Below, one piece after another: positions 21,592 through 64,000 of a stretch of 64,000 bases of DNA. The translations under genes and the position numbers were made by a program. The notes beneath the pieces were generated by a model. It was given only the letters and a program-made list of their open reading frames with translations, was not told where the DNA came from and searched no databases. Each line of letters begins with the position of its first letter. Positions within the stretch are counted from its first letter, which is position 1. The stretch comes from Armatimonadota bacterium (lineage in GTDB: Bacteria; Armatimonadota; Zipacnadia; UBA1398; JAKPQA01): contig JAKPQA010000005.1 of assembly GCA_029547025.1 (NCBI GenBank), positions 3,880 through 67,879 on the forward strand, written 5' to 3'.

Positions 21592-23187
21592 TCAGGGCTC
21601 GCGGGTGTTCCTCCAGTGGCCGCCGAGCCCGTCGAACAGACGGTCGGCAGCCGACGGGCCCCAGCTCCCGGCAGCATAGTTGGGGAAGTCCCGAGGGGGA
21701 ACGGCGCCCCAGTAGTCCAAGAGGGGTGTCAGGAAGGCCCAGGCCCGCTCGATCTCGGTCGAGTGCGTGAACAGAGTCTGATCCCCTCGGATCACATCCA
21801 CCAGCAGCCGCTCGTAAGCATCCGGCAGCGCCTGGGGGAAAGCATCGCGATAGTAGAAGCGCGACGTGACCCGGTGGAGATCCATGTTCATGCCAGGTCG
21901 CTTCACCATCAGGTCCATCAGCACACCCTCGTCGGGCTGTATGCGGAAGATGATCAAGTTCGGTTCCATGGCGGCAAGCCGGCACACGTCGCCCACGCAG
22001 CGAACCGTCCGGAACAGCTGGGTGGGTGGACGACGGAAGACGACGACGATCTCGGTGCGGCGTACGGGCATGCGCTTGCCCGTTCTCAGGAGGAATGGTA
22101 CCCCCGCCCACCGCCAGTTCTCGATGTACACGCGCATCGCCGCGTAGGTCTCCGTGTTGGAGTTGGCGGCGATGCGGTCCTCATCGCGGTACGCACGGCC
22201 CAGAGGGCCCTCGCCGTACTGGCCCCGGACCGCCCACCCGAAGCCCGCGTCCTCGGCGCATAGCGCCTGCAGGACCTTGACCTTCTCGGCCCGGATTTCC
22301 TCGGCACCGCAGACCGAAGGGGGTTCCATGGCCACCAGGCAGAGGAGCTGTAGCACATGGTTCTGGACGACGTCCCGAAGCGCGCCCGTCTGGTCATAGA
22401 AGGCGCCCCGGGCGCCCTCGATGCCCTGATCCTCGGCAACCGTGACTTGCACGTGGTCGACGTAGCGGCGGTTGAAGATGGGCTCGAACAGCCCATTGCC
22501 GAAGCGGAACGCCAGCAGGTTCTGGACCGTGTCCTTCCCGAGGTAATGATCGATGCGGCAGATCTGCGACTCGGCCAGGCACTGACTGAGTTGGCGGTTC
22601 AGAGCCTGGGCGCTCTGGAGGTCGTGCCCGAAGGGCTTCTCAAAGACCACCCGGGACCACGGCTCGCCTCCCGGCTCGTAGAGCAGCCCAGCCTCGCGCA
22701 GATTGTGGGTGACCATCGAGAAGAACGCCGGTGCCGTGGCCAGGTAGGCAACGCGATTGCGCGGGAAGGTGCGCCCTCGGCTCGGAGTCTCGAGGAACTC
22801 CCTGAGCGCGGTGTAGTCCGATGGAACCTCAAACTCGAGCGGCTGGTAGTGAACTCGCCGCAGGAAGAGCGCCAGGTCCGCTTCGGCGATCGGCTGCGTC
22901 CGCGCGTGGGCCCGGATGGCGGCGGCCATCTCAGCCCGAAAGCCCTCGGTGCTCTTCACACGACGCGCGGCACCCACGACGGCTGTCTCGGGCGCCAGGT
23001 ACCCGGCACGGGACAACTCGAACAGCGCGGGGACCACCTTCCGGCTCGTGAGATCCCCCGTCGCCCCGAAGATGATAACCGTCGCCGACGGCTCAGGTCC
23101 CAGAGGGCCGTCGCGGAACGGTGCGCTGGTGTCATCGACGTCCACCAATATGTCGCCCGGAACGGTCACGGCGTCTCCCCCTCCCAC
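21592..23187 (-). CDS. zwf: glucose-6-phosphate 1-dehydrogenase
   Basis: A GATGDL dinucleotide-binding motif and full-length G6PD-like sequence. It forms the operon zwf-pgl-gnd on the minus strand. The exact start is uncertain. Confidence 0.85.
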   Translation of the reverse strand: MGGGDAVTVPGDILVDVDDTSAPFRDGPLGPEPSATVIIFGATGDLTSRKVVPALFELSRAGYLAPETAVVGAARRVKSTEGFRAEMAAAIRAHARTQPIAEADLALFLRRVHYQPLEFEVPSDYTALREFLETPSRGRTFPRNRVAYLATAPAFFSMVTHNLREAGLLYEPGGEPWSRVVFEKPFGHDLQSAQALNRQLSQCLAESQICRIDHYLGKDTVQNLLAFRFGNGLFEPIFNRRYVDHVQVTVAEDQGIEGARGAFYDQTGALRDVVQNHVLQLLCLVAMEPPSVCGAEEIRAEKVKVLQALCAEDAGFGWAVRGQYGEGPLGRAYRDEDRIAANSNTETYAAMRVYIENWRWAGVPFLLRTGKRMPVRRTEIVVVFRRPPTQLFRTVRCVGDVCRLAAMEPNLIIFRIQPDEGVLMDLMVKRPGMNMDLHRVTSRFYYRDAFPQALPDAYERLLVDVIRGDQTLFTHSTEIERAWAFLTPLLDYWGAVPPRDFPNYAAGSWGPSAADRLFDGLGGHWRNTREP

Positions 23188-23264
23188 CCGCCACGATGCG
23201 ACGCTTGTTCGCCAGTCTGTCGACGGGAGCCCTGCGTGTCATTGGCGGTAACATAGGGCCCTTG

Positions 23265-23495
23265 GCCGGGCGGCTGGGTCTCGCGACGGTCGCGCGGAAC
23301 GCCCGCCTGGTCTTTCGGAGAGGCCGCACAGGGGTGCGCCCCGAGGGCGCGGGGCCCCTGACCGGCCCGAGGTTGAGGCGTGCGGATCGGGCGCGTTGGG
23401 GGCCCACCACGCTGGGAGAACGCGTGGTCCCCCCCCATGGCGCCCCTCCGCAACCAGGCTGATGGGCCACGGGAGCCCTCAGTTACCGCCAATGG
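23265..23495. repeat. ~230-bp GC-rich noncoding repeat element, copy 1 (second copy at 34826..35058, ~95% identical, same orientation)
   Basis: Direct alignment of the two stretches gives about six substitutions and one indel. Two substitutions fall in the loops of short perfect hairpins (CGCGA-NGG-TCGCG; GCGCCC-NGA-GGGCGC). The flanks are unrelated, and no reading frame is conserved through both copies. Confidence 0.6.
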
Positions 23496-23554
23496 CCCTG
23501 CTTGTCCCCGTAGCCGACCGGAGGTATGGCCGGGCCGCAAAGGAAAGGCTTAGT

Positions 23555-24805
23555 ATGCTCGAGTCATCCGCTCCCGCAGTTTCGCTGCGGGATCTGTTTC
23601 CCGCGAGGCAGGCTGCCACCGACCCGCTCGAGGTCCGCGTGGTGTCGGAACGGCTGCGGCGTCGGACGCGCAGACGGCTGCTCCTGAGGGAAGTGCGGTT
23701 CGACTCTCACGAATGGCAGCAGGGCACGGTCCGCATCGCGGCATTTGTGGCAGTGCCCCTCGGGTTGGGTCCCGTACCCGCCATGGTGGTCGGCGCCGGT
23801 GACCTGAAGCGTGCGGCCGACTTCGCCGCACGGCATCAGATCGGCTGTCTGTGCTTCGACCGGCCCGGGACCGGTGCCAGCACGGGACCGGCGGACGAGT
23901 ACGCCAACTGGATCCACTTCGACCACCCCCGCGAGGGGTGGATGTGGCACTACGTCTACGCCGCGCTGCGCGCTCTGACCTACCTGCAGTCGTTGCCCGA
24001 GGTCGACCCAACGCGGCTGGGCATCACCGGCTACTCGCGCGGGGGCACCATGGCCTACATCGCCAACGGTGTCGACCCCCGGATATGCGTCTCGGTGCCC
24101 CAGGCGTCCGCCGGCGGTATCCTGGGGGCCGTGGATGTCGGGGGCTGGGCGGCGAGCCTCCACCGCGATGCTGCAGGCCGGCCGTACGTCCCCGAAGCCT
24201 TCTACGAGTTCGCGAGATACTACGACCCGGCGCTGTATGCGGACATGCAAAACGGCCTCGTCATGCCCATCATCGGCGCGCAGGACGAGTTCTTCCCCCT
24301 GGAAACGGTGGCGGGCACGGTTCGAGCCATGTCGCCTCGCTGTCGGCTGGAGCTCATTGCGAACTGGGACCATGCTTACTTCGCGGGTGGGAATGCGGAT
24401 GTTGACGCCTTCGATAACCGGCGAGCGTTCCGGACGCGAACGCGCCGTTGGCTGGCGGCCGCTACCCGCTGTCTGCGTGAAGGCGGGAACACCATCCCAC
24501 CCATGCCGGTGCTGCAGGTGGACGAGCGGGGCCAGGAACTGCATTGGGAGATCACGGCCGCCCACCACGAAGACATGGTGCGGGGGAGGCTCTGGTACTC
24601 GACCGACGGCGCGTACACCTTCGCGGCGACGCGGGCAGTTCGTTGTGCGGCCGGCTTCGTGACGCGGCTGCGTCTCTCACGCGATGTCGCGGCTGGTCTG
24701 GCTGCCTTTGCCGAGGTCGAGTACCGCCAGGGCCCGCTGATCTCCTCGCTCCCGTACCTCGGGCCGGCTTTTTGCCAGCGGCTCCGACCGTTCCCTGAGC
24801 AGTGA
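23555..24805 (+). CDS. alpha/beta-hydrolase fold esterase/peptidase-like protein (dienelactone hydrolase / acetyl-esterase-like)
   Basis: A GYSRGG nucleophile elbow. Start trimmed to the ATG at 23555, which follows an in-frame TAG and an AGGAAAGG Shine-Dalgarno. Confidence 0.55.
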   Translation: MLESSAPAVSLRDLFPARQAATDPLEVRVVSERLRRRTRRRLLLREVRFDSHEWQQGTVRIAAFVAVPLGLGPVPAMVVGAGDLKRAADFAARHQIGCLCFDRPGTGASTGPADEYANWIHFDHPREGWMWHYVYAALRALTYLQSLPEVDPTRLGITGYSRGGTMAYIANGVDPRICVSVPQASAGGILGAVDVGGWAASLHRDAAGRPYVPEAFYEFARYYDPALYADMQNGLVMPIIGAQDEFFPLETVAGTVRAMSPRCRLELIANWDHAYFAGGNADVDAFDNRRAFRTRTRRWLAAATRCLREGGNTIPPMPVLQVDERGQELHWEITAAHHEDMVRGRLWYSTDGAYTFAATRAVRCAAGFVTRLRLSRDVAAGLAAFAEVEYRQGPLISSLPYLGPAFCQRLRPFPEQ

Positions 24806-25832: not shown

Positions 25833-25891
25833 GGGGGCCTCCGTTCCAGCGAGGAATGCCGTACGTGTCCACCACCGAGGCAGGCATACTC

Positions 25892-28201
25892 CTACAGCGG
25901 CAGGTTCCCATACTTGGGCTTGGGCGAGGCCTCCCACTGCTTGAGGGCATCATCGGCTCGGCCGGCGGCCAGGTAGGCCAGCCCGAGTGCGTCTTTCGTC
26001 GCCGGCGAGCCCGAGAGCTGGACTGAACGCTCGAGAGCCGCGACTGCTTCCGGCCAGCGCTTCTCCTTCAGCCGCACGAAACCCAGCAACGCGAGGCTGT
26101 CCGCCGTCTCCTGCCCGGGCGCCACGAGTGGCTCGATGGCCTGGTCTGCCGTAGCCCAGTCGCTGTTCCAGACGGCCACGGTGACGAGCAGCTCTACCAG
26201 GCTGGGCGGCAAGGGCTGGTGCGTTGCGCAGAACTCCCGCACCTCCTTGAGGATGGCCGCACGCGCCTCGTCCGGTGTCGGGGCACCCTCGCCGGTCAGG
26301 AACACATCTGGCCGCGTCGTGTCATAGATGACGCCGATCGCCTGCCGGGTCTTGCCGTCCGCCACCGACTGGTACAGCCACTGACGCCCCTCCGGTGCTT
26401 TGCCCTGTAGGATGAGGCACAGCCCGATGTCCTGGCGCACGGGCGCCATGGCCACCGGGTTCTCCTTGAGCAGTTGCTGGAAGATCTGGCCCGCCTCGGC
26501 GGCGGCCGCCTTGACGGCATCCGCGTCCGCAAAGCCCAGCGAGCTGGCGCCCTGGGAGCCCGACAGAGTCGCAGCGAACGCATGGATCATCAGAAGCCGG
26601 GCGAGCCCGTACCGTGCCGCCCGGTCTTCAGGGTTGGCGCTGCGAGTCCGCAAGCCGGCCATGACCCGCGGATCGGCCAGTGCCGTGGTGATCGGAGTCC
26701 GCGGCTCGGTATCGAAGCCCGCATACGAGTTGAGGGGGTTGAGGGCGTTGAGCAAGAAGGCCAACCGTCTGAACTCGTCGAGCTGGGCGCACACGCCGGC
26801 GGGGTCCAGGCCGCGAAGGTACCGCAGCGCTGCCGTGACTGCGCGGACGTAGTCGTGGCCGGGCTCGGTGGCCAAGAGCTTCGTTGGGTCAGGCGACGCG
26901 TTCAGGTACTCCACGGCCCACTCGAGCGGCGCCCCATCGGGCACCGGCTCAGCGCCCGGCGCACCGGCCGCCAGTGCAGCCGCGTGTTGGGCCAGGCGGC
27001 ACACACGGGCCTCCACGAGCACGGCCAGGCCCCGCACAGTTGGGTCGGGTGCGTCGAGCAGCGGCGCGGCCACCTCATAGGCCTGGTCCCAACGCTGGGC
27101 GAGGACAAGCAGTCGCGCATAGGCCGCACGATCGGCCGGCGGGCTCTCGGGCGTGATCGACGCCGCGCACGAGTCGGCCGCACGACCGGCCGCCGAGGCG
27201 GCCCGGGCCCCGGGGGAGGCTCGGAAGTAGGATACCGCCAAGTTCAGCGCCGCATTGAGATCGGTCGGCGCCCGGGTGAACGCCTCCTCCGCTCGCTCGA
27301 TGTCCTCCGCGGCCAATGGCAGCTCCAGCGCCCAGTTCTCGGCCGGAACCGGCTTGGCGGTGCATACGGCATCCACGGCCTTCTGGACGTCGACGAACCC
27401 GACGGTCTCCCGGTTGGGATGCGGCCAGGCCAGGCACGTGCCCTGGATCGCCAGGGTGATCTTCGAGATGTCCTCGCCCACCACGGGGGGAGGGATATCC
27501 ACCTGGGCGAACAACCCTGAGTCCCGCAGTCGCCGCGCCAGACTGGAGACCAGCGATCGGCTGAAGATGGTGCCAGGCTGGACCGCCAACCAGGCCTGGA
27601 GGGCCTCGGTGTTGACCGTCACGGGCGGAGCGACATGGAGTGCCAGTGACCCGATACGGGCCTCGACGATGGTCAGAACCAACCGGCCCTGCTCATCGAT
27701 GCGCCCGCTGGACACGATGGCCTCATATCCCGCGCTGGTGTAGGCTTCGATGATGCGATCGACCGCGCGGTTGGCGAGCACGGAGTTGTAGATCTCGCCC
27801 TCCACGAGAAGGTCGCCCACGGCTGCCTTCAGCTGGTCTGTCGTGATGATCTGGTTGCCTTCGAACATCACGGCCGTGAGGCGGGGGTTCTCGGTGAGCT
27901 GGAAGACGATCTTCACGCCGCCCTCGACCTCGGTCACATTCACGCGCGTCCGCTCCGGGTCGGGGTTGAACACGCCGAGGGCCAGGATGGCCGCCATGTC
28001 GGCCTCGAGCTGCTCGGGCTTCAGGACCGCTCCCTGGGTCGTGCGAACTGCGGGTCTGAGCGCCTCGAGCTTCACGGTCTGCAGCCCCTGGAACTCGACC
28101 GAGACCACACGCCGCTCAACCGGCTGCTGGCTCTGAGTGGGCACAGGGAGCAAGACCTGCAGGAGCACTACCACACCGGCCATGCGCCGGGCGTGTACCA
28201 T
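25892..28201 (-). CDS. POTRA-domain protein with a long TPR-like alpha-helical C-terminal region
   Basis: Signal peptide, then three POTRA-like repeats (VxVEFxGLQTV..., MFEGNQIITTDQL...). The rest is helical and TPR-like. No C-terminal beta-barrel signature or terminal aromatic residue is present. Confidence 0.5.
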   Translation of the reverse strand: MVHARRMAGVVVLLQVLLPVPTQSQQPVERRVVSVEFQGLQTVKLEALRPAVRTTQGAVLKPEQLEADMAAILALGVFNPDPERTRVNVTEVEGGVKIVFQLTENPRLTAVMFEGNQIITTDQLKAAVGDLLVEGEIYNSVLANRAVDRIIEAYTSAGYEAIVSSGRIDEQGRLVLTIVEARIGSLALHVAPPVTVNTEALQAWLAVQPGTIFSRSLVSSLARRLRDSGLFAQVDIPPPVVGEDISKITLAIQGTCLAWPHPNRETVGFVDVQKAVDAVCTAKPVPAENWALELPLAAEDIERAEEAFTRAPTDLNAALNLAVSYFRASPGARAASAAGRAADSCAASITPESPPADRAAYARLLVLAQRWDQAYEVAAPLLDAPDPTVRGLAVLVEARVCRLAQHAAALAAGAPGAEPVPDGAPLEWAVEYLNASPDPTKLLATEPGHDYVRAVTAALRYLRGLDPAGVCAQLDEFRRLAFLLNALNPLNSYAGFDTEPRTPITTALADPRVMAGLRTRSANPEDRAARYGLARLLMIHAFAATLSGSQGASSLGFADADAVKAAAAEAGQIFQQLLKENPVAMAPVRQDIGLCLILQGKAPEGRQWLYQSVADGKTRQAIGVIYDTTRPDVFLTGEGAPTPDEARAAILKEVREFCATHQPLPPSLVELLVTVAVWNSDWATADQAIEPLVAPGQETADSLALLGFVRLKEKRWPEAVAALERSVQLSGSPATKDALGLAYLAAGRADDALKQWEASPKPKYGNLPL

Positions 28202-28275
28202 AAGAGGACCTCACTTAGCCGTCAGCGGGGCCCACGCCGGGCCCCCAGGAGTCCACTACTCGCCTTTAGACACAC

Positions 28276-30330
28276 CTATGAGCCCGAAGGTCGCCCGGCG
28301 GGCGCATTCGCCGGGAGCAGGCGGCCGAGGATGCGCAGCGCCTCTCCGACGCTCCACGCCTGCGAGATGCATCCTCGTGGCTCGTGCGGTGCTGCGCCAT
28401 CGTAGATCTCCGACAGGCTACCCACTCCCGCGTCGTAGACCTGCCGGAGCAGCGGATCGAGAAGCCCGAGAGCCGCCCGCTCGGCGCCGGGCTCGCCCGC
28501 GTGCGCATACAGCCACGCGTCCACGTACGGGCCGATCAGCCACGCCCACGCGGTGCCCTGATGATAGGCGCCATCGCGTGCCCATCGGTCACCGAGGTAG
28601 ATACCGCGGTAGCCCGGCTCACTGGGGGCGAGCGTCCGCAGGCCATGGGGCGTCAACAACCCGCGATCGATCCGGTCCAGCATCTGGCGTGTCCGTTCGG
28701 CATCGATCAGCTTGTACGGCAGACTCGCGGCCAACAGCTGGTTCGGCCGAAGAGTCTGATCGCGCACGCCATCCACGACGCGATCGGCGAGGTACCCGGC
28801 GGCCGCGTCGTGGAATGCCGGCACGAAGGAAGCCGCAGCGCGCTCCGCGTGCTCGGCCGCCTCCCGCGCCTGGGCCGGCATGGCGAGTCGGCCAGCCAGG
28901 TCGGCCGTGATGCGAAGGGCGTTGTACCAGAGCGCGTTGATCTCGACCGGCTTTCCATTCCGTGGGGTGACCACCCAGTCATCGACCTTGGCGTCCATCC
29001 ACGTCAGCTGTGTCCGCTCGTCGCCAGCGGCGAGCAGCCCGTCTGAGTCCACGCCGATGCCGTACCGCGTACCCCGCACATGGGCGCGGATGATCTCCAT
29101 GAGCACCGGAAGCAGCCGCCTGGCGGTGTCGAGGTCGCCCGTAGCTGCGACATAGCAGTGGAGAGCCACAAAGTACCACAGAGTCGCGTCCACCGTGTTG
29201 TAGTCGGGCGCCTCACCCGAGTCGGGGAACCGGTTGGGCAGCATGCCCTGATCCACGAACTCGGCATACGTGAGCAGGATCTGCCGGGCGTCCTCGGCAC
29301 GGCCCGTGGTCAGGGTCAGGCCGGGTAGGGCGATCATCGTGTCCCGGCCCCAGTCACCGAACCAGTGGTAGCCAGCGAGAATGGACCCGAGCCCGCTGCC
29401 CCGCCGGACGAGGAAGCTGTCTGCCGCCAGGATCAGCTCATCCACCTCGGCACGATGCCCGGCCATGGGGCACCGGCGCAGCACAGCGTGGCGGCGCGCC
29501 ATCTCGGCGTCGAACAGGGCCGGGGCCTCCTCGGCCCGGCGCGGCTCGGTTGAGAGGACCAGATACGCGGGTTCGCCCGATGCCAGTGGCAGCGCCAGCT
29601 CGCCCGGCCGGTACAGGTCTTCCTCGAACTCCAGGCCGCGCTGTCGCTCCTGTTCATACTGGAAGTTGTAGTACCATACCGGATCGTGGCAGTACGTTCC
29701 CTCGGTGGCTGAAACATAGATGCGGGGCCCCAGCTCGTAGGGCTGGTACCACGCACCGCCCGCATGAGGAGCCCATTCGCGTGACAGCCACGGGTCAAAT
29801 CGCTTCAGCCAGTGGTAGTCGCGGCAGGTGATCAGTGGGTGCACGAGAAGCTCGGCCCCTGCTGGCCCATCCCACATGTAGCGCACCAGGGTGGTGTTCT
29901 GTCCCTGCACCATGGCCACGGTCTTGAGCAGCGTGCCGCCCAGGACCCGATAGCTGAACGAAGGGACGCCGAGTTCCAGCCGCACGTCCTGGAGATACTC
30001 GTACCCATCCGGGTAGACCACCTTGGGGTACGCATTGCACCCGAGCTCCGCAACGCCTGCGGATGTCCGCACGGTCTCCTCGCACTTGGCGACCAGCACG
30101 GTGCGGGCCACGGGCGGCTGCAGTGCGGCCACCAGCATGCCGTGATAGCGCCGTGTGTTCAGGAAACACAAGGTGGATGAGGCATACCCACCGATACCGT
30201 TGGCGACCAGCCATTCGCGCCGGGTCAACTCGTGTAGGTCGGCGCAGACCTCAGAGGCGAAGCGCAGCAAGGCCGTCCACTCCCTTGGGGGCGAGTTGGG
30301 CCCCGGCCTCCGAACCACGCGCCAGGGCAA
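28276..30330 (-). CDS. glycogen debranching enzyme family protein (amylo-alpha-1,6-glucosidase-type, GDE_C)
   Basis: N-terminal WLVANGIGGYAS motif and a six-hairpin glucosidase-like C-terminal half. Confidence 0.7.
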   Translation of the reverse strand: MPWRVVRRPGPNSPPREWTALLRFASEVCADLHELTRREWLVANGIGGYASSTLCFLNTRRYHGMLVAALQPPVARTVLVAKCEETVRTSAGVAELGCNAYPKVVYPDGYEYLQDVRLELGVPSFSYRVLGGTLLKTVAMVQGQNTTLVRYMWDGPAGAELLVHPLITCRDYHWLKRFDPWLSREWAPHAGGAWYQPYELGPRIYVSATEGTYCHDPVWYYNFQYEQERQRGLEFEEDLYRPGELALPLASGEPAYLVLSTEPRRAEEAPALFDAEMARRHAVLRRCPMAGHRAEVDELILAADSFLVRRGSGLGSILAGYHWFGDWGRDTMIALPGLTLTTGRAEDARQILLTYAEFVDQGMLPNRFPDSGEAPDYNTVDATLWYFVALHCYVAATGDLDTARRLLPVLMEIIRAHVRGTRYGIGVDSDGLLAAGDERTQLTWMDAKVDDWVVTPRNGKPVEINALWYNALRITADLAGRLAMPAQAREAAEHAERAAASFVPAFHDAAAGYLADRVVDGVRDQTLRPNQLLAASLPYKLIDAERTRQMLDRIDRGLLTPHGLRTLAPSEPGYRGIYLGDRWARDGAYHQGTAWAWLIGPYVDAWLYAHAGEPGAERAALGLLDPLLRQVYDAGVGSLSEIYDGAAPHEPRGCISQAWSVGEALRILGRLLPANAPAGRPSGS

Positions 30331-30401
30331 CCCTGTACCCTAACGGCCGCAGCGCCTCGAACGCTCACCTGTCGCGCAAGCCGGCTGGACTGAGGCCGAG
30401 C

Positions 30402-31865
30402 CTAATACTCTTCGGCCCGGGGCCGCATGTGGGGAAACAGAATCACATCGCGGATGGACTCGGTGCCCGTCAGCAGCATGAACAGGCGATCCATGCCGAT
30501 CCCGAGCCCTCCCGTGGGCGGCATTCCGTGCTCCAGGGCGCGCAGGAAGTCCTCATCCATCGGCTGGGCCTCCTCATCGCCAGCCGCGCGCTGCCGCGCC
30601 TGGTCCTCGAATCGCGCGCGCTGATCCAGGGGGTCATTGAGCTCGGAGAAGGCATTGGCCGTCTCCTGGCCGGCGATGAAGAGCTCGAAGCGCTCCGTCA
30701 ACTCCGGTTGGTCTGGCTTGCGCTTGGCGAAGGGGGACACAGCCACGGGGAACTCGGTGACATAGGTGGGCTCGACGAGGTTCGGCTGCACGTAGATGTC
30801 GAACACCTTATTCAGCACCGTGGCCACCGTGACGGGTCCGTCGGGGTCAACCTCCTTGGCCCGGGCGACGGCCTTGGCGGCCGAGTCGTCGCTCAGGTCG
30901 GCCAGTGAGACGCCCGCGAACTCCCGGAGCACCTCATCCATGGTACGGACATGCCAGTCCGCACCCAGGTCGATCTCGTGGCCGGCAAACCGGGCCTTCA
31001 TCGCGCCCGACACCGCCACCGCAGCCGTGCGGATGATCTCCGTCGTCAGCTCCATGATCTGGTGATAGTCGGCATATGACTGGTAGAGCTCGAGCATGGT
31101 GAACTCGGGGCTGTGATCGCGGTCCATGCCCTCGTTGCGGAAGTTGCGATTGATCTCATACACACGATCGAAACCGCCCACAATCAGGCGTTTGAGATAG
31201 AGCTCGGGCGCGATCCGCAGGTACAGGTCGATATCGAGAGCATTGTGATGAGTGACGAACGGTCGAGCGGCCGCCCCGCCATGGATGGCCTGCATCATGG
31301 GCGTCTCGACCTCGACGAAGCCCCGTTCGTCGAGCAGGTGCCGGATGGCTGTGATCATTCGGGAACGTGCCACAAAGAGGTCGCGGACCTCGGGTTCCGC
31401 GATGAGGTGAAGGTAACGCCGACGGTGCTTCGCCTCGGCGTCACGCAAGCCGTGGAACTTCTCGGGCAGCGGCCGGAGCGACTTGCTCAGGATCCGCAGC
31501 TCGGAAACCGCGATCGAGACCTCGCCCCGTCGTGTGCGGAACACCTCGCCACTTACACCGATGAAGTCACCCAGGTCGACGAGGTCGAGGCGTCCGTATG
31601 CCTCGGGACCCAGACGGTCCTCCGTAACATGGAGCTGGATGCGGCCGGTGTGGTCGGCCAGGTCCAGGAAGGCCGCGCGGCCGTGCCCGCGGCGTGCCAC
31701 CAGCCTTCCGGCCAGGGTTACCGCCTTGCCTTCAAGCTCGTCAAAGCGGCGATGAACCTCGCTGGCCGTGTGGGTCCGATCGAACCGAGTGATCTGGAAC
31801 GGATCCATGCCCATGCGACGCAGTTCCTCGAGCTTGCGAACGCGCTGCGCCATGAGTTCGTCCAC
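30402..31865 (-). CDS. lysS: lysine--tRNA ligase (class II)
   Basis: Full-length LysRS with an anticodon-binding OB domain and class II motifs. Confidence 0.9.
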   Translation of the reverse strand: MDELMAQRVRKLEELRRMGMDPFQITRFDRTHTASEVHRRFDELEGKAVTLAGRLVARRGHGRAAFLDLADHTGRIQLHVTEDRLGPEAYGRLDLVDLGDFIGVSGEVFRTRRGEVSIAVSELRILSKSLRPLPEKFHGLRDAEAKHRRRYLHLIAEPEVRDLFVARSRMITAIRHLLDERGFVEVETPMMQAIHGGAAARPFVTHHNALDIDLYLRIAPELYLKRLIVGGFDRVYEINRNFRNEGMDRDHSPEFTMLELYQSYADYHQIMELTTEIIRTAAVAVSGAMKARFAGHEIDLGADWHVRTMDEVLREFAGVSLADLSDDSAAKAVARAKEVDPDGPVTVATVLNKVFDIYVQPNLVEPTYVTEFPVAVSPFAKRKPDQPELTERFELFIAGQETANAFSELNDPLDQRARFEDQARQRAAGDEEAQPMDEDFLRALEHGMPPTGGLGIGMDRLFMLLTGTESIRDVILFPHMRPRAEEY

Positions 31866-31894
31866 GTCTGTCCCCTCCTCCCGCGGCTACCGAT

Positions 31895-31943
31895 GGGAGA
31901 CACAGAGAACCCGGCGTCCTCGCTGTCGGGTCGAGGCGCCGGG
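31895..31943 (-). terminator. candidate intrinsic terminator downstream of greA
   Basis: GC-rich inverted repeat CCCGGCG...CGCCGGG (stem of ~12 bp with a ~9-nt loop), followed on the transcribed minus strand by UUCUCUGUGUCU. Confidence 0.35.
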
Positions 31944-31975
31944 TCCCCAATCCTGGCCGGAAGGCCGACGGTCCC

Positions 31976-32458
31976 CTACTTGCTGATCTTCGTGATCTTG
32001 TACTTGATGGTCCCGTCGGGCACTTTGACCTCGATGGTGTCGCGGACCTTCTTGCCCATCAGGGCGCTCCCAACCGGCGACTCGTAGGAGATCCGGTCCT
32101 CGGACGGATCGGCCTCGATGGGCCCCACGATGCGCAGGTCCCACGACTCGTCCAGGTCCAGATCTTTCACCCGCACATGGCTCCCAATCCCAACCACATC
32201 GGTAGGGATATCCTCATCGCGCAGGACCACCGAACGCCGCAATATGCTGCGGATCTCCTCGATGCGCCCCTCAATGATGGCCTGATCCATCTTCGCATTC
32301 TCGTACTCGGAGGTGTCGAAGTCCTCGGCCGAGCGCTTCGCCTCGCGCACCCGGGCCGTGGCTTCGGGCCGGTCGATGGTCGTCAGGCGCCGGAGCTCCG
32401 CCTGCAAGCGCTCAGACCCTTCCTTGGTGATCACGATCTCGTCGTTGTCCATGGTCAC
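31976..32458 (-). CDS. greA: transcription elongation factor GreA
   Basis: 160 aa with a GreA coiled-coil N-domain and the FKBP-like C-domain motif (SPVGSALMGKKVGD-like). Confidence 0.9.
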   Translation of the reverse strand: MTMDNDEIVITKEGSERLQAELRRLTTIDRPEATARVREAKRSAEDFDTSEYENAKMDQAIIEGRIEEIRSILRRSVVLRDEDIPTDVVGIGSHVRVKDLDLDESWDLRIVGPIEADPSEDRISYESPVGSALMGKKVRDTIEVKVPDGTIKYKITKISK

Positions 32459-32890
32459 CGCCGCATCTCAGAGCAACCAATGGTGCGCCGCTGGCCCCGA
32501 GGGACTGGGCCTTACGCCGTTCGGGCCGCCGCTCGGAACGGCAGATTCTAACGGCCGGACCCACCCACGTCAACGCGGCCATGCCGCGCGGCGCGGGTTT
32601 CCGCCACACCCCAACGGCTTCCTGCACCCGTATGTTCCGCGATCGCCGCCCAAACTCATTCCCCGGGATGCGGAAGCCCAAACGTGGTGGCGGAACAGGA
32701 GGCCCGAGGCTCCCGGCCCAGGCTACGACACACACCGCACTTTGGGGGCTGCGCCCAGGCTGCCCGGAGCCCCCGAAGGGGGCGGCCACCCGCGCACCGG
32801 GCCAACCTTCCCCAAGGGACTCTCCCTCGCCTGGCGGAACACTTGCTCGACTCAGCCACGTGGTGAAAACCCCACTAGGAGGCGCGAGAC

Positions 32891-34240
32891 ATGGCGATCG
32901 GACCGATGAGCCGCAGGCAGTTCCTCAAGACCACCGGCGCCGCTCTCGGCGGGGCTGCGGTGCCTCTCATCCTGCCCACGAGCCGGGCATTCGGCGCCAA
33001 CGATCGCGTTGTGATCGGCCTGATGGGCTGCGGCGGCCGCGGCGACTTCCTGGCCGAGTTCCTCGCGTCCCGGACCGACTGCCGGATCGCCTATGTCAGC
33101 GATGCCGACTCGCGCCGCATGGGCCCGGTGGCGGACAAGGTCGCCCGGATCTCCGGCACCGCCCCGAGGCAACTCCAGGACTTCCGCCACATCCTCGATA
33201 TCGGCCACGTGGATGCCCTCATCAGCGCCACGCCCGACCACTGGCACGCCCTCGCGACCATTTGGGCCTGCCAGGCGGGCAAGGATGTCTACGTCGAGAA
33301 GCCGGCCAGCCACAACATCTGGGAGGGCCGCAAGATGGTCGAGGCGGCCCGGAAGTACCGCCGCGTCGTCCAGGTGGGCGCCCAGAACCGCAGCGCTCCG
33401 GAAGTCATGGCCGGTGTCGAGTACCTGCGCTCCGGCAAGCTCGGCAGCGTGCACTTCGTCCGCGTGCTCAACATGAAGCAGCGCGATCCCATCGGCAAGA
33501 AGGCCGATGAGCCGGTCCCCTCCGGTGTCAACTACGACCTGTGGTGCGGCCCGGCCCCCATGAAGCCCTTCAACCCGAACCGGTTCCACTACTCCTGGCA
33601 CTGGTTCTGGGACTTCTCCGGCGGCGACATCATCAACGATGGCGTGCACCAGATTGACATCGCCCGATGGCTCATCGACAAGCCCTACCCGCGCGCGGTC
33701 TCATGCACCGGTGGGAAGTACGCCTACGACGACGACCAGGAGACCCCCGACACCCAGGTGGCCCACTGGGAGTACGACGACATGACGCTGAGCTTCAACC
33801 TGACGCTCTGGACGCCGTACATGCAGAAGACGGCCTGGGAGGTCCGCGATCTCGACCAGTTCCCCGACTGGCGGTTCTGCGCGACCCGCATCGAGGTCTA
33901 CGGCACCAAGGGCATGATGATGATGGGCCGACACGGCGAAGGCTGGCAGGTCTACGGGATCGATGGCAAGGTCGTCGACTCCCACTTCGGCCGGCACCCG
34001 CACGGGCCGCACCTCGAGAACTTCTTCGCCTGCATCCGCGATCGGAAGACTCCCAGCGGCGATATCGAGGAGCTTCATCGGAGCACATTCCTGTGCCAGA
34101 CGGCGAACATCGCCTACCGCGTCGGCGGCCGCCGGCTCGAGATCGACCCCGAGGGTGAGTGCTTCATCGGTGCCGACGACGCCAACGTGCTGGTCAAGCG
34201 CCGGGGCCGCGCACCCTACCAGGTGCCGGAGCGGGTGTGA
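32891..34240 (+). CDS. Tat-secreted Gfo/Idh/MocA-family NAD(P)-dependent oxidoreductase (GH109-like)
   Basis: Twin-arginine signal (SRRQFLKTTGAALGGAAV), a Rossmann GLMGCGGRG motif, and a Gfo/Idh/MocA C-terminal domain. Confidence 0.75.
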   Translation: MAIGPMSRRQFLKTTGAALGGAAVPLILPTSRAFGANDRVVIGLMGCGGRGDFLAEFLASRTDCRIAYVSDADSRRMGPVADKVARISGTAPRQLQDFRHILDIGHVDALISATPDHWHALATIWACQAGKDVYVEKPASHNIWEGRKMVEAARKYRRVVQVGAQNRSAPEVMAGVEYLRSGKLGSVHFVRVLNMKQRDPIGKKADEPVPSGVNYDLWCGPAPMKPFNPNRFHYSWHWFWDFSGGDIINDGVHQIDIARWLIDKPYPRAVSCTGGKYAYDDDQETPDTQVAHWEYDDMTLSFNLTLWTPYMQKTAWEVRDLDQFPDWRFCATRIEVYGTKGMMMMGRHGEGWQVYGIDGKVVDSHFGRHPHGPHLENFFACIRDRKTPSGDIEELHRSTFLCQTANIAYRVGGRRLEIDPEGECFIGADDANVLVKRRGRAPYQVPERV

Positions 34241-34390
34241 GACACCCCGAATGCGAGCGGCCTGCTATACAGAAGTATTTCAATAGAAAGGACGATACTT
34301 TCCCCTGTCTGTCGAACAGGTACTCTAACATTCGCCACTCGGATAGGCTGCGGGCACTGCCGGGGCCAATGCGTCCGGGGGGAATGCGGT

Positions 34391-34921
34391 ATGCGGTTCC
34401 TCGCTGCGGGATCGTCGGTCCTGATACTCCTTGTGGCCTGCGCTGCCGTCGCTCAGGACATTACGCCGCCGGTCGTTACGGAGGTCGAAGCCAAGGTACT
34501 TGCCCCCACGACCGGGAACTACGAGCCAAGTCAGGCCATCACCGCGACCACGCAGCACGGAATGAAGTACAACTCCACGGCCCACGGCTTTCCGCCCTAC
34601 GCCTACGAGATCCACTGGCGTCAGTACCCCTCGTGGGCCTCGAAAAGTGCTCGCTACGGCACCGTGACTGCGAACGACTTCCACGGTAGCGATGGCACAG
34701 ACTGGAACCACATCACGCCCAATCCAACCTATCCGTGGCAGGTGCCCGGGAGAACGGGCATCACCCACGTCTTCACAGCAGAGACTTACGCCCGTGCGGC
34801 GTGCCGGACCAAGCCTCCGGGGGTACCGGGCGGCTGGGTCTCGCGAAGGTCGCGCGGAACGCCCGCCTGGTCTTTCGGAGGGGCCGCACAGGGGTGCGCC
34901 CAGAGGGCGCGGGGCCCCTGA
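34391..34921 (+). CDS. small secreted hypothetical protein with atypical (lower GC3) codon usage; its 3' end runs into repeat copy 2
   Basis: Signal peptide MRFLAAGSSVLILLVACAAVAQD. Codon third positions are visibly less GC-biased than in neighbouring genes. It is preceded by a ~150-bp AT-richer leader. The last ~30 codons lie inside the repeat, so the native C-terminus is unclear. Confidence 0.35.
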   Translation: MRFLAAGSSVLILLVACAAVAQDITPPVVTEVEAKVLAPTTGNYEPSQAITATTQHGMKYNSTAHGFPPYAYEIHWRQYPSWASKSARYGTVTANDFHGSDGTDWNHITPNPTYPWQVPGRTGITHVFTAETYARAACRTKPPGVPGGWVSRRSRGTPAWSFGGAAQGCAQRARGP

Positions 34922-35058
34922 CCGGCCCGAGGTTGAGGCGTGCGGATCGGGCGCGTTGGGGGCCCACCACACTGGGAGACGCGTGGTTCCCCCCATGGCG
35001 CCCCTCCGCAACCAGGCGGATGGGCCACGGGAGCCCCAAGTTACCGCCAATGCCCCGG
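34826..35058. repeat. ~230-bp GC-rich noncoding repeat element, copy 2
   Basis: See copy 1. This copy lies between the convergent 3' ends of the small secreted gene and a GH5-like gene, and is followed by a G10 homopolymer tract. Confidence 0.6.
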
Positions 35059-35143
35059 GGGGGGGGACGCGCAAGGCCCGCACACCGCACTGCCCCGTCT
35101 TGTGGACGGGCCGGCCCGGGTACCCTCGCGCCGGCCTTCCCCT

Positions 35144-58208: not shown

Positions 58209-60023
58209 GTGTTGAACAGCGTGGAGGCGGGGGCAGAGGGCCGTGCTCGTTCCGGGCGGCCGGCCCCGGGGATGACCATGGCACGAGGCAGGCGGCGCGA
58301 GTGGGGCGAGGCGGATGATGACACGCCTGAGCTCGTGATGGGCGAGGACGGGCCGGGCGATGAGTCTCTTGGCCTCGAGACCCAGGTTCAAGCCGCGGCG
58401 ATTGTCGATGAGCTGCTGAGGGCGACGGACGAGAAGGACCCGCGCTGGGGGGCATTGTTCCTCCTTCGGCACCAACTGCGTGTCGATGAGCGGCAGATGG
58501 ATGAGGCTCGGCAGGCCATTGCCGAGCTCCAACAGGCGTATGACAAGCTGACCAGTCCCGCCAATCGCCTGGGTACGTTTTTGGATGCACCCGAGGAAGG
58601 CATTGCGCGTGTGGCGGTTGGCGACACCGAGTATTACGCCAACGTGGATTCTCAGAAGGTGCCGGAGACGCCGGTTCCGGGCGCGTGTGTTCGCCTCAAC
58701 GATGCGTTTGCGGTGGTCGGCGACCTGGGTCCATGGACCAGTGGGCCGCTGACGAAGGTGGCCGAAGTCCTTGCCGACGGGCGGCTGCGGATTGGGACGG
58801 AGCCGGGCGGGCTGGGCAGCCGGATCGTGGTTCGGTCGTCGGCTCTGGACGGCATTGCTTTGCGGCAGGGCGATGAGGTTCGGCTCGACCCCAGCGGGCG
58901 GGTGGCCGTCGAGCATTTCCACCGGGCAGAGACGCGGGACTACTTTTTCGAAGAGGTGCCGGAGACGCCGTGGTCGGCCGTCGGGGGCCAGGAGGATGCC
59001 ATCCGGCTGATCCGGGACACCATCGAGCTGCCTCTCCTGCACCCGGAGCTGTATGAGCGGTTCCACAAGCGTCCGGTCAAGGGCATCCTGCTGTATGGGC
59101 CTCCCGGTTGTGGGAAGACGCTGATCGGACGGGCCACGGCGTACAACCTCACCCGGGAGTACCGGCAGCGTTTCGGGCGCGACGTCAAAGAGTGCTTCAT
59201 GTACATCAGTGGGCCCCGGATCCTCAACATGTGGCTTGGGGAGAGCGAGCGGATGGTCCGCGAGATCTTCGCTGCGGCGCGGGAGCGTGCGGCGGAGGGC
59301 CACCTGGTATTCGTCTTTGTCGACGAAGCCGAGTCGTTGCTCCGCACCCGGAGTGCGGGGCGCACTCTCAACATCGCGAACACCCTGGTGCCCCAGTTCT
59401 CAGCGGAGATGGACGGGATGGTGTCGCTGCAGAACGTTGTGGTGATCCTGACGTCCAATCGGCCCGACTACATCGATCCGGCGATTCTGAGGCCCGAGCG
59501 CATTGACCGGAAGATCAAGATCGGCCGGCCGGACCGGTCCGCGGCGCGTGAGATCTTTCGCATCTACCTCGATGATCGGGTGCCCCTGAGTGCCGAGCTC
59601 GTGGCCGAGCATGGCAGTGATCCGGCGGCGCGCGAGCATCTCCGCGACCAATGCGTGCACCGGATCTTCCGGTCGGTTCGCGAGACGGAGTTCCTCGAGG
59701 TTCACCTGCTGAACGGTCGTACGGACGTGTTGCACTGGCGCGATCTGGTGAGCGGGGCGCTCATCATGTCGGTTGTCGAGCGCGCGAAGGATCTGGCGAT
59801 TCGCCGCGCCATCGAGAAGGGCAACCCCGCCGAGGGGATGCAGTGGGCGGACCTGGAACAGGCCATCGACCTGGAGTTCCGCGAGAACGAGATCTTCCCG
59901 AAGTCTGATGTGGTGGAGGACTGGCTGAAGCTGATCGACTACGAGCCCGAGAACGTGGTCACGGTGAAGCCGATCCGGCCGGATCGGGGCCGCGGTCGGG
60001 CCGCCCGGCATACGGTGATCTAG
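58209..60023 (+). CDS. mpa: proteasome-associated AAA ATPase Mpa/ARC homologue
   Basis: Acidic coiled-coil N-region, an inter-domain OB region, and an AAA module with LLYGPPGCGKTLI Walker A and VFVDE Walker B. Long blocks align with mycobacterial Mpa (FLEV..NG, SGA.I..VVERAK). The C-terminus is ...RAARHTVI, not GQYL. The start is uncertain (GTG at 58209 or ATG at ~58272). Confidence 0.8.
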   Translation: MLNSVEAGAEGRARSGRPAPGMTMARGRRREWGEADDDTPELVMGEDGPGDESLGLETQVQAAAIVDELLRATDEKDPRWGALFLLRHQLRVDERQMDEARQAIAELQQAYDKLTSPANRLGTFLDAPEEGIARVAVGDTEYYANVDSQKVPETPVPGACVRLNDAFAVVGDLGPWTSGPLTKVAEVLADGRLRIGTEPGGLGSRIVVRSSALDGIALRQGDEVRLDPSGRVAVEHFHRAETRDYFFEEVPETPWSAVGGQEDAIRLIRDTIELPLLHPELYERFHKRPVKGILLYGPPGCGKTLIGRATAYNLTREYRQRFGRDVKECFMYISGPRILNMWLGESERMVREIFAAARERAAEGHLVFVFVDEAESLLRTRSAGRTLNIANTLVPQFSAEMDGMVSLQNVVVILTSNRPDYIDPAILRPERIDRKIKIGRPDRSAAREIFRIYLDDRVPLSAELVAEHGSDPAAREHLRDQCVHRIFRSVRETEFLEVHLLNGRTDVLHWRDLVSGALIMSVVERAKDLAIRRAIEKGNPAEGMQWADLEQAIDLEFRENEIFPKSDVVEDWLKLIDYEPENVVTVKPIRPDRGRGRAARHTVI

Positions 60024-60053
60024 CCCGGCGAGTTGGGAAGGGAGCATTCCCTG

Positions 60054-61640
60054 GTGCCTCGAGTGCATGTCAGGCCCCTGATCCCCCTGGGTCACTCACT
60101 GTCGGTGCGGCTCATGGGTACGGAGACCGAGTATGGCATCTACGTTGACGGCGTTGAGCCGGGGGGCCTCGACCAGGAGTCTGCCCGGCTGGTCGAGGCG
60201 GTTCCTCCTCCCTTCGCGGCACGGTGGGACTACTCGGCCGAGACACCCCGGCGGGATCTGCGCGGTTTCACGGTGAACGCGCTGGCGCGCGACGCTCGGG
60301 ATGCCGCCTATGATGCGGCGGTTGGGGAGGCGTCGCGTGCCGCCCCGGCCGACCGCGTTCTGGCCAACGGGTCCCGGCTCTACAACGACCACGCCCATCC
60401 CGAGTACTCGACACCGGAGTGTGCATCGCTTTGGGACCTGGTGGCGCACGAGAAGGCGGGCGAGCAGATCGTGGCCGCTTGCGCCTCCCGGCGGGCCGCG
60501 GACCTGGGCCGCAGGGTGGCGCTGTATAAGAACAATACCGACTTCCATGGCATGAGCTATGGGGCCCACGAGAACTATCTGTTGCCGCGGTCGGTGCCTG
60601 ACGAGGTGTTGCTCGGCGGGCTGTTGCCGTTCCTGGTTTCGCGGCAGGCGTTCGCGGGTGCCGGCAAGGTGGGGGTGGAACGGCACCGAGCTCCGAAGGT
60701 CCGGTATCAGCTCTCGCAGCGGGCCGACTTTTTCGACACCGATGTGGGGGTCGATACGCTGGCCCGGCGCCCCATCGTCAACACGCGCGATGAGCCACAC
60801 ACCGATGCCAGCCAGTACCGCCGGCTGCACGTGATCTGTGGCGATGCGAACTTGAGCGAGTACGCCATGGCGCTCAAGGTGGGGGTCACGGCCCTGGTTC
60901 TGGAGACGCTGGCCGCGGGGCGAGCACCGGCGATTCGGCTGGCCAAGCCGGTCGAGGCGGTGCGGCGGATCTCCTGGGACCCGGCGTTTGAGTACCGAGC
61001 CGAGACGGTTGACGGGGGCCGCCTGACGGCCCTCGAGATCCAGCGGGTCTACCTGGACGCTGCGTCGGCGCTGGAGTTGCCGAGTGGTTCGGAGGGAGAG
61101 TGGGTGCTCCGGCAGTGGGCGGCGATGCTGGACGCACTGGCGACCGATCCGTCGTCTCTGGCCGACCGGATCGACTGGGTGGCGAAGTACTCGATGTTGG
61201 AGTCCTATGCGGCTGGTGAGGCCTCGGGTTGGGAGCCTGAAGTCATGCAGAGCCTGGATCTGGCGTACCATGACCTGGACGCCGAGGCGGGCTTGTTCCG
61301 GGGCCTGGAGCAACAGGATGCCGTCCAGCGCCTGGTGACACTGGGCCAAGTGGCCCGGGCCGTGAGCGCTCCGCCCGGCGACACGAGGGCCGCACTTCGG
61401 GGCCTGTGTGTTCAGCGCTTTGCCTCGCAGATTGAGGCGATCCGTTGGGGCCGCGTGGTGCTGTCGCTGAACGGCAGCTTGTGGGCGTTCGACATGGAGG
61501 ACCTGGTGGAAGGGGTGCCACCGGGACTTCTGGAGGCGTTGTCGGGTGTTGGGACACTGGAGGAGCTTGCAGCCCTGGTGGCTCGACGGGATGGTGGACG
61601 CGATGGCGGAGATGAAGCGCTGGCCGGTGGCGGGGTGTGA
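60054..61640 (+). CDS. dop: Pup deamidase/depupylase Dop (Dop/PafA family)
   Basis: N-terminal GTETEYGI motif and DHAHPEYSTPEC motif. Its length of over 500 aa is longer than a PafA. Start options are the GTG at 60054 (GAAGGGAG Shine-Dalgarno), the TTG at 60033, or the ATG at 60114. Confidence 0.75.
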   Translation: MPRVHVRPLIPLGHSLSVRLMGTETEYGIYVDGVEPGGLDQESARLVEAVPPPFAARWDYSAETPRRDLRGFTVNALARDARDAAYDAAVGEASRAAPADRVLANGSRLYNDHAHPEYSTPECASLWDLVAHEKAGEQIVAACASRRAADLGRRVALYKNNTDFHGMSYGAHENYLLPRSVPDEVLLGGLLPFLVSRQAFAGAGKVGVERHRAPKVRYQLSQRADFFDTDVGVDTLARRPIVNTRDEPHTDASQYRRLHVICGDANLSEYAMALKVGVTALVLETLAAGRAPAIRLAKPVEAVRRISWDPAFEYRAETVDGGRLTALEIQRVYLDAASALELPSGSEGEWVLRQWAAMLDALATDPSSLADRIDWVAKYSMLESYAAGEASGWEPEVMQSLDLAYHDLDAEAGLFRGLEQQDAVQRLVTLGQVARAVSAPPGDTRAALRGLCVQRFASQIEAIRWGRVVLSLNGSLWAFDMEDLVEGVPPGLLEALSGVGTLEELAALVARRDGGRDGGDEALAGGGV

Positions 61641-61806
61641 GCGGCAGCAGAGACCGCCCGGACCGCGGGAGCCGTGGCAGCGTGGTGAGGACGACGGCCC
61701 GTCTCGGCCCGATGTTCAGCGGCCGGATACGCAGGAGTTGCTGCGGCGAATGCGCCGGGTGGACCCGCGCCAGGCGCGACGGTATCGGCAGCGGAGCGGG
61801 CAGTAG
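61591..61806 (+). CDS. candidate divergent pup (highly uncertain): basic ORF ending ...RRYRQRSGQ, overlapping the dop 3' end
   Basis: This is the only ORF in the dop-prcB gap frame that ends in Gly-Gln immediately (7 nt) before prcB. No start codon exists after the dop stop, so it would have to begin inside dop. Its composition is basic, unlike acidic canonical Pup. Confidence 0.15.
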   Translation: MVDAMAEMKRWPVAGCERQQRPPGPREPWQRGEDDGPSRPDVQRPDTQELLRRMRRVDPRQARRYRQRSGQ

Positions 61807-61810
61807 CCGC

Positions 61811-62623
61811 ATGGGGGAGGGGCGAAGGGTGGATGCGGGGATGCCGGCGGCTTCGGGTGACTTCATGCTGCTGTTGCAGCGCGGTGCTCCGCCGGGCGCG
61901 AGCATGCCGTGGTGCGGTGCCGACCCCCGTGTGGGGCGTCTCGAACCCGCGGGGGCGGCGCATGGTACCACGGTGCTGGCGCTCAAGTATCGAGATGGCG
62001 TGGTGAACGTGGGTGACCGCCGGGCGACGGCGGAGAACCTGGTGCTGTACGACCGGGCGGACAAGATCCTGCCGCTGGACGACCATACGCTGATCGCCAT
62101 CAGCGGGTCGTACGCGCGCGCCATGGATGCGGTTCGCTTCCTCCGGCACTCCTTCAACTACTACCGCCGGAGCCAGCTTCAGGAGATGAGTCTCGAGGGG
62201 AAGCTCAACGAAGTGACGCGATTCCTGGTCGGCACGGTACCCGACCTCCTCCAGGGTCAAGGTTATGTGGTGCCGCTGATCAGCGCTTTTGATGTGAGTG
62301 CGGACGCGGGACGGGTTTTCTTCTTCGATGTGGCCGGTGCGCGGTTCGAGACGGCGGAGTTTGGCGCCGCGGGGTCGGGGTCGCACCGCATTCGCGGCGC
62401 CTTCGATTACATCGTGAAGACCAAGGGCCCGTTTCACGAGATGGCGCTGCACGAGGTATTGCGTGAGGCGCTGGTGTTGTTGGACATCGCTGCCGAGCTT
62501 GATGCGGCCACCGGTGGTCTGCAGAAGGTGTTGCCGAGCGTGAAGACGGTGACCCGCGAGGGCATCCGGGAGATGGAGGAGGCCGAGCTGGCCGAGGTCG
62601 TTGGGCAGCTTGGGGCGAGCTGA
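61811..62623 (+). CDS. prcB: 20S proteasome beta subunit with propeptide
   Basis: HGTTVLALKYRDGVVNVGDRRAT places the Thr-1 active site after a ~57-aa propeptide. Start at the ATG at 61811, or possibly the upstream ATG at 61712 in the same frame. Confidence 0.8.
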   Translation: MGEGRRVDAGMPAASGDFMLLLQRGAPPGASMPWCGADPRVGRLEPAGAAHGTTVLALKYRDGVVNVGDRRATAENLVLYDRADKILPLDDHTLIAISGSYARAMDAVRFLRHSFNYYRRSQLQEMSLEGKLNEVTRFLVGTVPDLLQGQGYVVPLISAFDVSADAGRVFFFDVAGARFETAEFGAAGSGSHRIRGAFDYIVKTKGPFHEMALHEVLREALVLLDIAAELDAATGGLQKVLPSVKTVTREGIREMEEAELAEVVGQLGAS

Positions 62624-63408: not shown

Positions 63409-63417
63409 GGGTGGGCC

Positions 63418-64000
63418 ATGCGCGAGCGGCTGATGGGGCTCGAGGTCGAGTATGGGTGCTTGGTCCGGGATGCGTCGCTCGGTCGTCCGGAGCAGGTCGT
63501 GGAGCTACTGAAGGACTACGCGTTCAACGATCTGCAGATCGGCCTGGTCGACCGGCACGCGCGGGACTTCGCCTTCGAGCCCGCCCAGGCCGGGGGGTTC
63601 CTCACCAATGGAGGCCGTCTCTACATCGACGCCGTGGGCGACCATCTGGAGTACGCCACACCCGAGGTCACACGGCTCGATGACCTGGTGGCGCACGACC
63701 GGGCGGGTCAGCGGACCCTGCTCCGCCTGGTTGACGGCGCGCTCTCGCGGGACGCGGTGAGCTTTCACAACAACAGCATTGACCATTTTGGTGGTCACAC
63801 CTTCGGGTGCCATGAGAACTACGCGGTGAGCATCCCGTCGGACAGCTTGCGCGTGGCGCTCACCAGCGTGGTCTCATTCCTGGTCAGCCGCCTGATCTAC
63901 GCCGGAGCCGGGCGGGTGGGAGGTCATCGTTTGACCCGCGGCTCGCCGCGCGATCTCGCTCGCCAGGGCCACAGGGTCCTGGACACCCTCTGGGTGGGAG
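63418..64000 (+). CDS. pafA: Pup--protein ligase PafA, N-terminal part; 3' end lies outside the window
   Basis: An MGLEVEYG start motif and NGGRLYIDAVGDHLEYATPE, paralogous to dop. The frame is open to the window end. Confidence 0.7.
   Translation, partial: MRERLMGLEVEYGCLVRDASLGRPEQVVELLKDYAFNDLQIGLVDRHARDFAFEPAQAGGFLTNGGRLYIDAVGDHLEYATPEVTRLDDLVAHDRAGQRTLLRLVDGALSRDAVSFHNNSIDHFGGHTFGCHENYAVSIPSDSLRVALTSVVSFLVSRLIYAGAGRVGGHRLTRGSPRDLARQGHRVLDTLWVG

Follow-up and report, generated by a model that had tools for sequence, protein, structure and literature searches.

The window, by which we mean the whole 64,000-nucleotide stretch of DNA that was analyzed, contains a repeat that lies once between the divergent genes zwf and esterase and a second time at the end of an orphan ORF. 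The two copies (23266–23498 and 34826–35056) are 95.3% identical over 233 nt and are arranged in direct orientation, 11,560 bp apart. Their shared part differs by eight substitutions and two one-base indels, and homology ends sharply at both sides, where the flanks are unrelated. An earlier sequence-only reading of the window had reported two ~95% identical copies in the same orientation, 11.5 kb apart and with unrelated flanks, all of which agrees with our alignment, whereas its count of ~6 substitutions was too low.

The extent of the repeat also had to be revised. The 13-mer GTTACCGCCAATG matched the window three times, against 0.01 matches expected: at 23482–23494, at 35040–35052, and, inverted, at 23240–23252. 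The inverted match starts 26 nt to the left of the point at which the copy-copy alignment begins and, as a third occurrence, identifies copy 1 as a 255-bp unit (23240–23494). The element is therefore bounded by inverted repeats (CATTGGCGGTAAC…GTTACCGCCAATG) of 13 perfect and ~22 imperfect nucleotides, both ends of which start with 5'-CAT. The boundaries first proposed for the copies had missed this leftward extension to 23240, as well as the inverted repeats, the target-site duplication, and the fact that copy 2 is truncated. The features of the two sites are as follows.

21592–23187, minus strand: zwf (glucose-6-phosphate dehydrogenase; Pfam G6PD_N and G6PD_C), start 52 nt from the left end of copy 1
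23229–23239, no strand assigned: left target-site duplication of copy 1, 11 bp, GCCCTGCGTGT, 10/11 match to 23495–23505
23240–23494, plus strand: copy 1 of the probable MITE, complete, 255 bp, with inverted repeats at its ends and an end-to-end alignment with ~20 full metagenome copies
23240–23261, plus strand: left terminal inverted repeat of copy 1, CATTGGCGGTAAC-ATA-GGGCCC, with a 13-nt core exactly reverse-complementary to 23482–23494
23399–23450, plus strand: REP-like hairpin module in copy 1, GGGGCCCACC-ACGC…GCGT-GG…CCCCATGGCGCCCCTCC, with the same architecture as the free-standing ~60-nt target hairpins
23471–23494, plus strand: right terminal inverted repeat of copy 1, GGGAGCCC-TCA-GTTACCGCCAATG, (near-)invariant in 21/21 aligned copies
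23495–23505, no strand assigned: right target-site duplication of copy 1, 11 bp, GCCCTGCTTGT, one mismatch to the left copy
23555–24805, plus strand: esterase gene (Pfam GCE_fung, AXE1, and DLH), ATG 60 nt from the right end of copy 1
34391–34921, plus strand: orphan ORF of 176 aa, called as a gene in public annotations, with its last 32 codons and stop codon within copy 2
34826–35052, plus strand: copy 2 of the probable MITE, 5'-truncated (element positions 27–255), with the first 26 nt absent and unrelated sequence to its left
34959–35008, plus strand: REP-like hairpin module in copy 2, with the architecture of the copy 1 module
35029–35052, plus strand: right terminal inverted repeat of copy 2, a match to the end motif

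Copy 1 is an intact insertion that has enlarged the 101-bp divergent intergenic region between zwf and the esterase gene to 367 bp. Its position in this region had been recognized before, and the Pfam domains confirm both genes; a public protein identical to the esterase is annotated as acetylxylan esterase [Armatimonadota bacterium]. Judging from the sequence, the promoters of zwf and of the esterase gene must lie inside copy 1 or very near it. The same-species assemblies L008, L010, L011, L012, and L091 have copy 1 at the same site, and their contigs often start within the element. Among the contigs that span the site we found 0 empty-site alleles, as all of them carry the element; the contig with a variant esterase gene (L091) starts within it.

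To define the family, JGI/ENA metagenome contigs were scanned for element ends with the pattern GRGCCCNNNGTTACCGCCAATG. The scan returned 61 loci, 50 of which are homologous to the element and 11 of which are chance single matches. Nearly all of the 50 homologous contigs come from anaerobic-digester and activated-sludge samples. Counted by their different flanks, they contain at least 33 distinct right-end junctions and 24 distinct left-end junctions, so that the two window copies are far from being the only ones, and dozens of copies are present in one uncultured Armatimonadota lineage. In about half of the 50 loci, the contig ends within the element, which is typical of an assembly-breaking repeat, and ~20 hold full copies. 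The copies occur in every orientation relative to the neighboring genes.

These data bear directly on the possibility that the window copies are the remnant of a local segmental duplication within a 12-kb region, with no mobility involved. Such an origin would be compatible with their direct orientation, their spacing of 11.5 kb, and their 95% identity, but it is practically excluded by the at least 33 junctions with unrelated flanks elsewhere in the lineage, by the inverted repeats accompanied by 11-bp target duplications, and by the homology stopping exactly at the element ends.

Full copies range from 222 to 298 bp, and within a size class they are 91–98% identical. The following size classes were distinguished.

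246–255 bp: common form
222 bp: 30-nt hairpin deleted
267 bp: 30-nt hairpin deleted, 62-nt module present
286 bp: left arm divergent
298 bp: 16-nt apical loop replaced by a 62-nt hairpin module

These variants show modular gain and loss of internal hairpins. Several open frames run through the element, none of which is preserved across the variants, in line with the earlier remark that the window copies share no ORF, and protein database searches with the element frames returned only spurious ORFs from the same lineage. Some loci hold tandem, nested, or internally rearranged partial copies (L195:2480–3120, L027:2009–2237, and L040:477–835); the partial copies in L195 are translated by gene callers as a spurious 241-aa “protein” (P0022).

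Outside these metagenomes, the element was not found. The end motif gave only seven chance matches among 185,579 species-representative genomes, a set that does not include the host genome, and 103 chance matches with no homology in viral contigs. A blastn search of a plasmid collection gave no match to the element, and phage collections contained no related sequence. The family thus looks very narrow in its distribution.

We then examined the insertion sites. Among the 17 full copies with both flanks available, 13 are bordered by an 11-bp duplication, which is perfect in eight of them, has one mismatch in four (including copy 1 of the window), and has two mismatches in one. The duplication is absent from the other four copies. 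In two of these (L057, 259–480, and L082, 10027–10279), the right flank of the former and the left flank of the latter each read CCCCAGATCCC, whereas their other flanks differ. Exchanged flanks account for the missing duplications of L057 and L082, an arrangement that indicates homologous recombination between copies, by inversion or deletion.

Taken together, the inverted repeats, the fixed 11-bp duplication, the many unrelated sites, and the lack of coding capacity identify the repeat as a MITE, a non-coding, non-autonomous DNA transposon of 222–298 bp, a reading to which we assign a probability of about 92%. A REP/MITE-like mobile element was among the identities originally suggested, next to a small RNA and a protein-binding DNA motif, and it is borne out by the inverted repeats, the 11-bp duplications, and the at least 33 junctions at which the element is inserted in same-lineage metagenomes.

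Copy 2 is, as far as can be predicted from its ends, a dead copy that is presumably immobile, since the left inverted repeat is missing. Between the two flanks of copy 2, CTCCGGGGGTA and CCCCGGGGGGG, 8/11 positions agree. Truncated copies are not confined to the window: the mid-contig copy in L059 (the same locus as L071) has lost its left part and starts near element position 66, and that in L074 is left-truncated with a rearranged left arm; both keep the right end. The earlier placement of copy 2 between convergent gene ends holds only approximately, because the called 176-aa ORF (34391–34921) does not stop short of the element and runs 32 codons into it. This ORF has a signal-peptide-like N terminus, and a search for homologues with a natural C terminus returned only its own 90% cluster. 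Directly abutting the right end of copy 2, the window reads CCCC and then ten consecutive G (35053–35066), which may account for the lack of a metagenome contig across the right junction of copy 2. The contig of L084 ends within copy 2.

The 11.3 kb between the copies contains housekeeping genes, including those for LysRS, GreA, a glycogen debranching enzyme, and a POTRA protein, and its G+C content is free of steps. In a sister species whose GFO gene is 88% identical at the nucleotide level, the POTRA-GDE-LysRS-GreA-GFO block is preserved between different flanks; no copy of the element was found in the sister-species DNA examined, and the gene order of this species differs at both insertion sites. 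Around this block, gene order is fluid in the lineage. Several of the sister-species contigs that correspond to window positions 25884–34241 (L013–L022) end just past the GFO gene, and on one of them, L013, a Cas3 gene is found 8 kb downstream.

This arrangement was also considered as a composite transposon or integrated island of 11.8 kb, bounded by the left repeat of copy 1 and the right repeat of copy 2. The outermost ends, at 23240 and 35052, are indeed correctly inverted to each other. However, the outer flanks, GCCCTGCGTGT and CCCCGGGGGGG, do not form a duplication, copy 1 has a duplication of its own, the G+C content is flat, and the interior consists of housekeeping genes that are syntenic in the sister species, in whose examined DNA the element was not seen. 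We rejected the composite transposon or genomic island on the basis of the mismatched outer flanks, the housekeeping interior, and the flat G+C content, and we give it next to no credence.

At its far end (58209–64000), the window carries a Pup-proteasome gene cluster, an actinobacterial-type system in an Armatimonadota MAG:

58209–60023: AAA ATPase with proteasomal OB domains
60033–61640: Pup-ligase family protein
61637–63408: two proteasome subunits

A second Pup-ligase paralogue begins at the window end and was seen as a repeat (D2) of 82 nt with 71% identity at 60392 and 63639.

Next, we considered whether the repeat acts as RNA. It folds very stably: for copy 1, the z-score was −5.4 for single-stranded DNA (23240–23494), and RNA of 23230–23505 gave −4.0 on the plus strand and −4.9 on the minus strand, whereas copy 2 gave −1.25 and −2.8. 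Two of the substitutions between the window copies fall exactly in hairpin loops, as had been noticed at the outset: one at 23287, in the 3-nt loop of CGCGA-CGG-TCGCG (23282–23294), and the other at 23342, in the 3-nt loop of GCGCCC-CGA-GGGCGC (23336–23350). The accompanying observation that substitutions avoid the stems extends to 20 copies, among which the hairpin loops change and the stems stay. In an alignment-derived structure, 45% of the unpaired and 16% of the paired columns are variable (Fisher p = 6e-7), a test that is partly circular; with structures derived from single copies, the proportions are ~50% and 20% (p from 2e-8 to 0.055). Variation is enriched in loops equally on the two strands.

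A multi-copy structured non-coding RNA gene, either an sRNA or a cis-regulatory element, whose hairpins are selected on the transcript and whose mobility is secondary, would explain the stable fold, the 2–2.5-fold higher frequency of variable columns at unpaired positions, and the constancy of the stems. Several results speak against it. No relevant Rfam match was obtained at the gathering threshold for the whole window, at E values up to 10 for copy 1, or at E values up to 1 for the 298-bp variant, and a tRNA/tmRNA scan found none. Neither copy contains a σ70-like promoter or an intrinsic terminator, as judged by E. coli-type rules that may not suit this phylum. For the consensus fold calculated from 21 copies, the covariation term is unfavorable (+1.9), although the copies are too alike for this to serve as a test, and double changes affect only 2/72 predicted pairs, both from one doubtfully aligned copy. 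Moreover, a DNA palindrome would be expected to show equal loop enrichment on both strands, the 222- and 267-bp variants do without entire hairpins, and the copies have every orientation to neighboring genes. The small RNA proposed in the sequence-only reading therefore finds no backing in Rfam, in promoter- or terminator-like sites, or in covariation, and we consider an RNA gene improbable. The loop-biased variation in itself fits an RNA structure or DNA hairpins, and selection or a repair or mutation bias in palindromes; the pattern cannot tell these apart.

The target sites of the MITE follow the consensus CCC(N5)GGG, with C at positions 1–3 in 64–79% and G at positions 9–11 in 55–79% of the sites and a middle that is more A+T-rich. 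Some 12 of the 33 right-end junctions (~40% of insertions) are located in a ~60-nt REP-like hairpin of the form GGGCCGRATAGGGTCCCACC-AGCC…GGCT-GGTTCCCCCTATTCGGCCCCTCCGAAG. The insertion point is in its 3' arm, and the duplication comprises the 11 bp just 5' of CCCCTCC. Free-standing ~60-nt hairpins of this kind (GGGCCGRATAGGGTCCCACC-stem-loop-stem-GGTTCCCCCTATTCGGCCCCTCC), whose inner stem shows compensatory changes, are present on the same contigs (L048:8071–8130, L048:3255–3315, L063:2613–2670, L075:11134–11190, and, on the minus strand, in L071 and L056); in the window, none was found outside the two MITE copies. It is into these free-standing hairpins that the MITE preferentially inserts. 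The right half of the element itself contains a REP-like module, and its left half carries an inverted copy of the 3'-arm motif of the module (…CCCCTCC). Because it carries such a hairpin, the element nests into itself, and self-insertions at the REP-like module of older copies were found in L040, L068, and L079.

This architecture is reminiscent of REP/REPIN-type elements, which raises the question of whether the repeat could be moved by a RAYT (an IS200/IS605-like tyrosine transposase) instead of a DDE transposase. The right REP-like module paired with the inverted 3'-arm motif on the left would agree with this, as would the presence of free-standing REP-like hairpins, with compensatory changes in their stems, around the element. 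However, REP, REPIN, and IS200/IS605 elements are not known to carry terminal inverted repeats or to duplicate their target sites, whereas the present element has inverted repeats and consistent 11-bp duplications. In addition, no Y1 transposase was noticed in passing in the DNA examined from the lineage and the sister species. We consider movement by a RAYT very improbable.

The element probably moves by cut and paste, with a DDE transposase supplied in trans that recognizes the inverted repeats and cleaves with an 11-bp stagger, which corresponds to one helical turn. Duplications of roughly this size are a hallmark of the IS4 family. The 5'-CAT ends and the 11-bp duplication suggest mobilization by an IS4-family enzyme, an assignment based solely on these end and duplication features, and an IS4-type partner transposase (IS231/ISH8-like) is plausible and marginally favored. 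No autonomous partner, sought as a repeat pair 0.7–7 kb apart with a duplication, was found in ~0.45 Mb of DNA from the lineage and the sister species or among the scan hits. A regular expression for the YREK motif, Y(2)R(3)E(6)K, applied to all ORFs ≥200 aa in the same ~0.45 Mb, returned two chance-level hits and no transposase.

The element might also be more than a passive MITE, seeding its own landing sites and having its stems selected, e.g. as an mRNA-end stabilizer, an attenuator, or a hotspot for recombination that rearranges gene order. We regard such an active role as rather unlikely; if true, it would account for the concentration of variation in loops and for the fixation of copy 1 at zwf/esterase in all samples seen.

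The MITE described here is a new family of a known kind of element, with no related sequence in plasmids, phages, viral contigs, or reference genomes, and it changes no general concept. A search of the literature for full texts containing both “Armatimonad” and “miniature inverted-repeat” returned only an unrelated preprint. The element explains the fragmentation of assemblies in metagenomes of this Armatimonadota lineage and gives rise to spurious or chimeric gene calls, one of them being the 176-aa ORF at 34391–34921. It points to an active or recently active transposon system, probably of the IS4 type, in a phylum whose mobile DNA is almost unstudied. Furthermore, its insertions constitute a natural data set on target selection, with an 11-bp duplication at CCC(N5)GGG in REP-like hairpins, and they document recombination between element copies as a contribution to genome dynamics.

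The element resembles the bacterial MITEs described previously, such as Correia/NEMIS in Neisseria, RUP in Streptococcus, and Nezha in cyanobacteria (PMC3184786), in being ~250 bp long and non-coding, with terminal inverted repeats and a duplication of fixed length. As in these families, its tens of copies are mostly intergenic, fold on themselves by self-complementarity, and occur as modular size variants. It differs from them in being unrelated in sequence, in its host, an uncultured Armatimonadota lineage, and in its 11-bp duplication, which is unusually long for a bacterial MITE. The long duplication, the targeting of REP-like hairpins, and the self-nesting are mildly unusual features.

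With REPINs and the REP doublets associated with RAYTs, the element shares short GC-rich palindromic modules, inverted pairs, and multiple extragenic copies; in contrast to the present element, REPINs have neither DDE-type terminal inverted repeats nor a target-site duplication (PMC3116915). Insertion of IS elements into REP sequences is already known, and the insertions of IS1397, ISKpn1, and ISPpu9/10 likewise concentrate in a short repeated extragenic palindrome (PMC1525189). These elements are autonomous, belong to the IS3 and IS110 families, and generate duplications of other lengths, whereas the present element is a MITE that carries a REP-like unit and is therefore a target for its own insertion.

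The closest parallels in end structure come from the IS4-family subgroups IS231 and ISH8, which have 5'-CAT ends and duplications of 10–12 bp or 10 bp (PMC2266710, Table 1). Like these elements and the non-autonomous MIC231 cassettes (PMC2266710), the MITE combines 5'-CAT termini with a duplication of about one helical turn, here 11 bp. Beyond CAT, its repeat departs from the IS231 consensus, CAT-------AA--TAA, and IS231 occurs almost exclusively in the Bacillus cereus group, whereas the present host belongs to the Armatimonadota. IS231A produces 11-bp duplications at GGGNNNNNCCC (PMC2577343, Table 1), and its target, GGG(N5)CCC, is the same 3+5+3 palindrome (PMC2577343) that the present element uses with reversed polarity, as CCC(N5)GGG.
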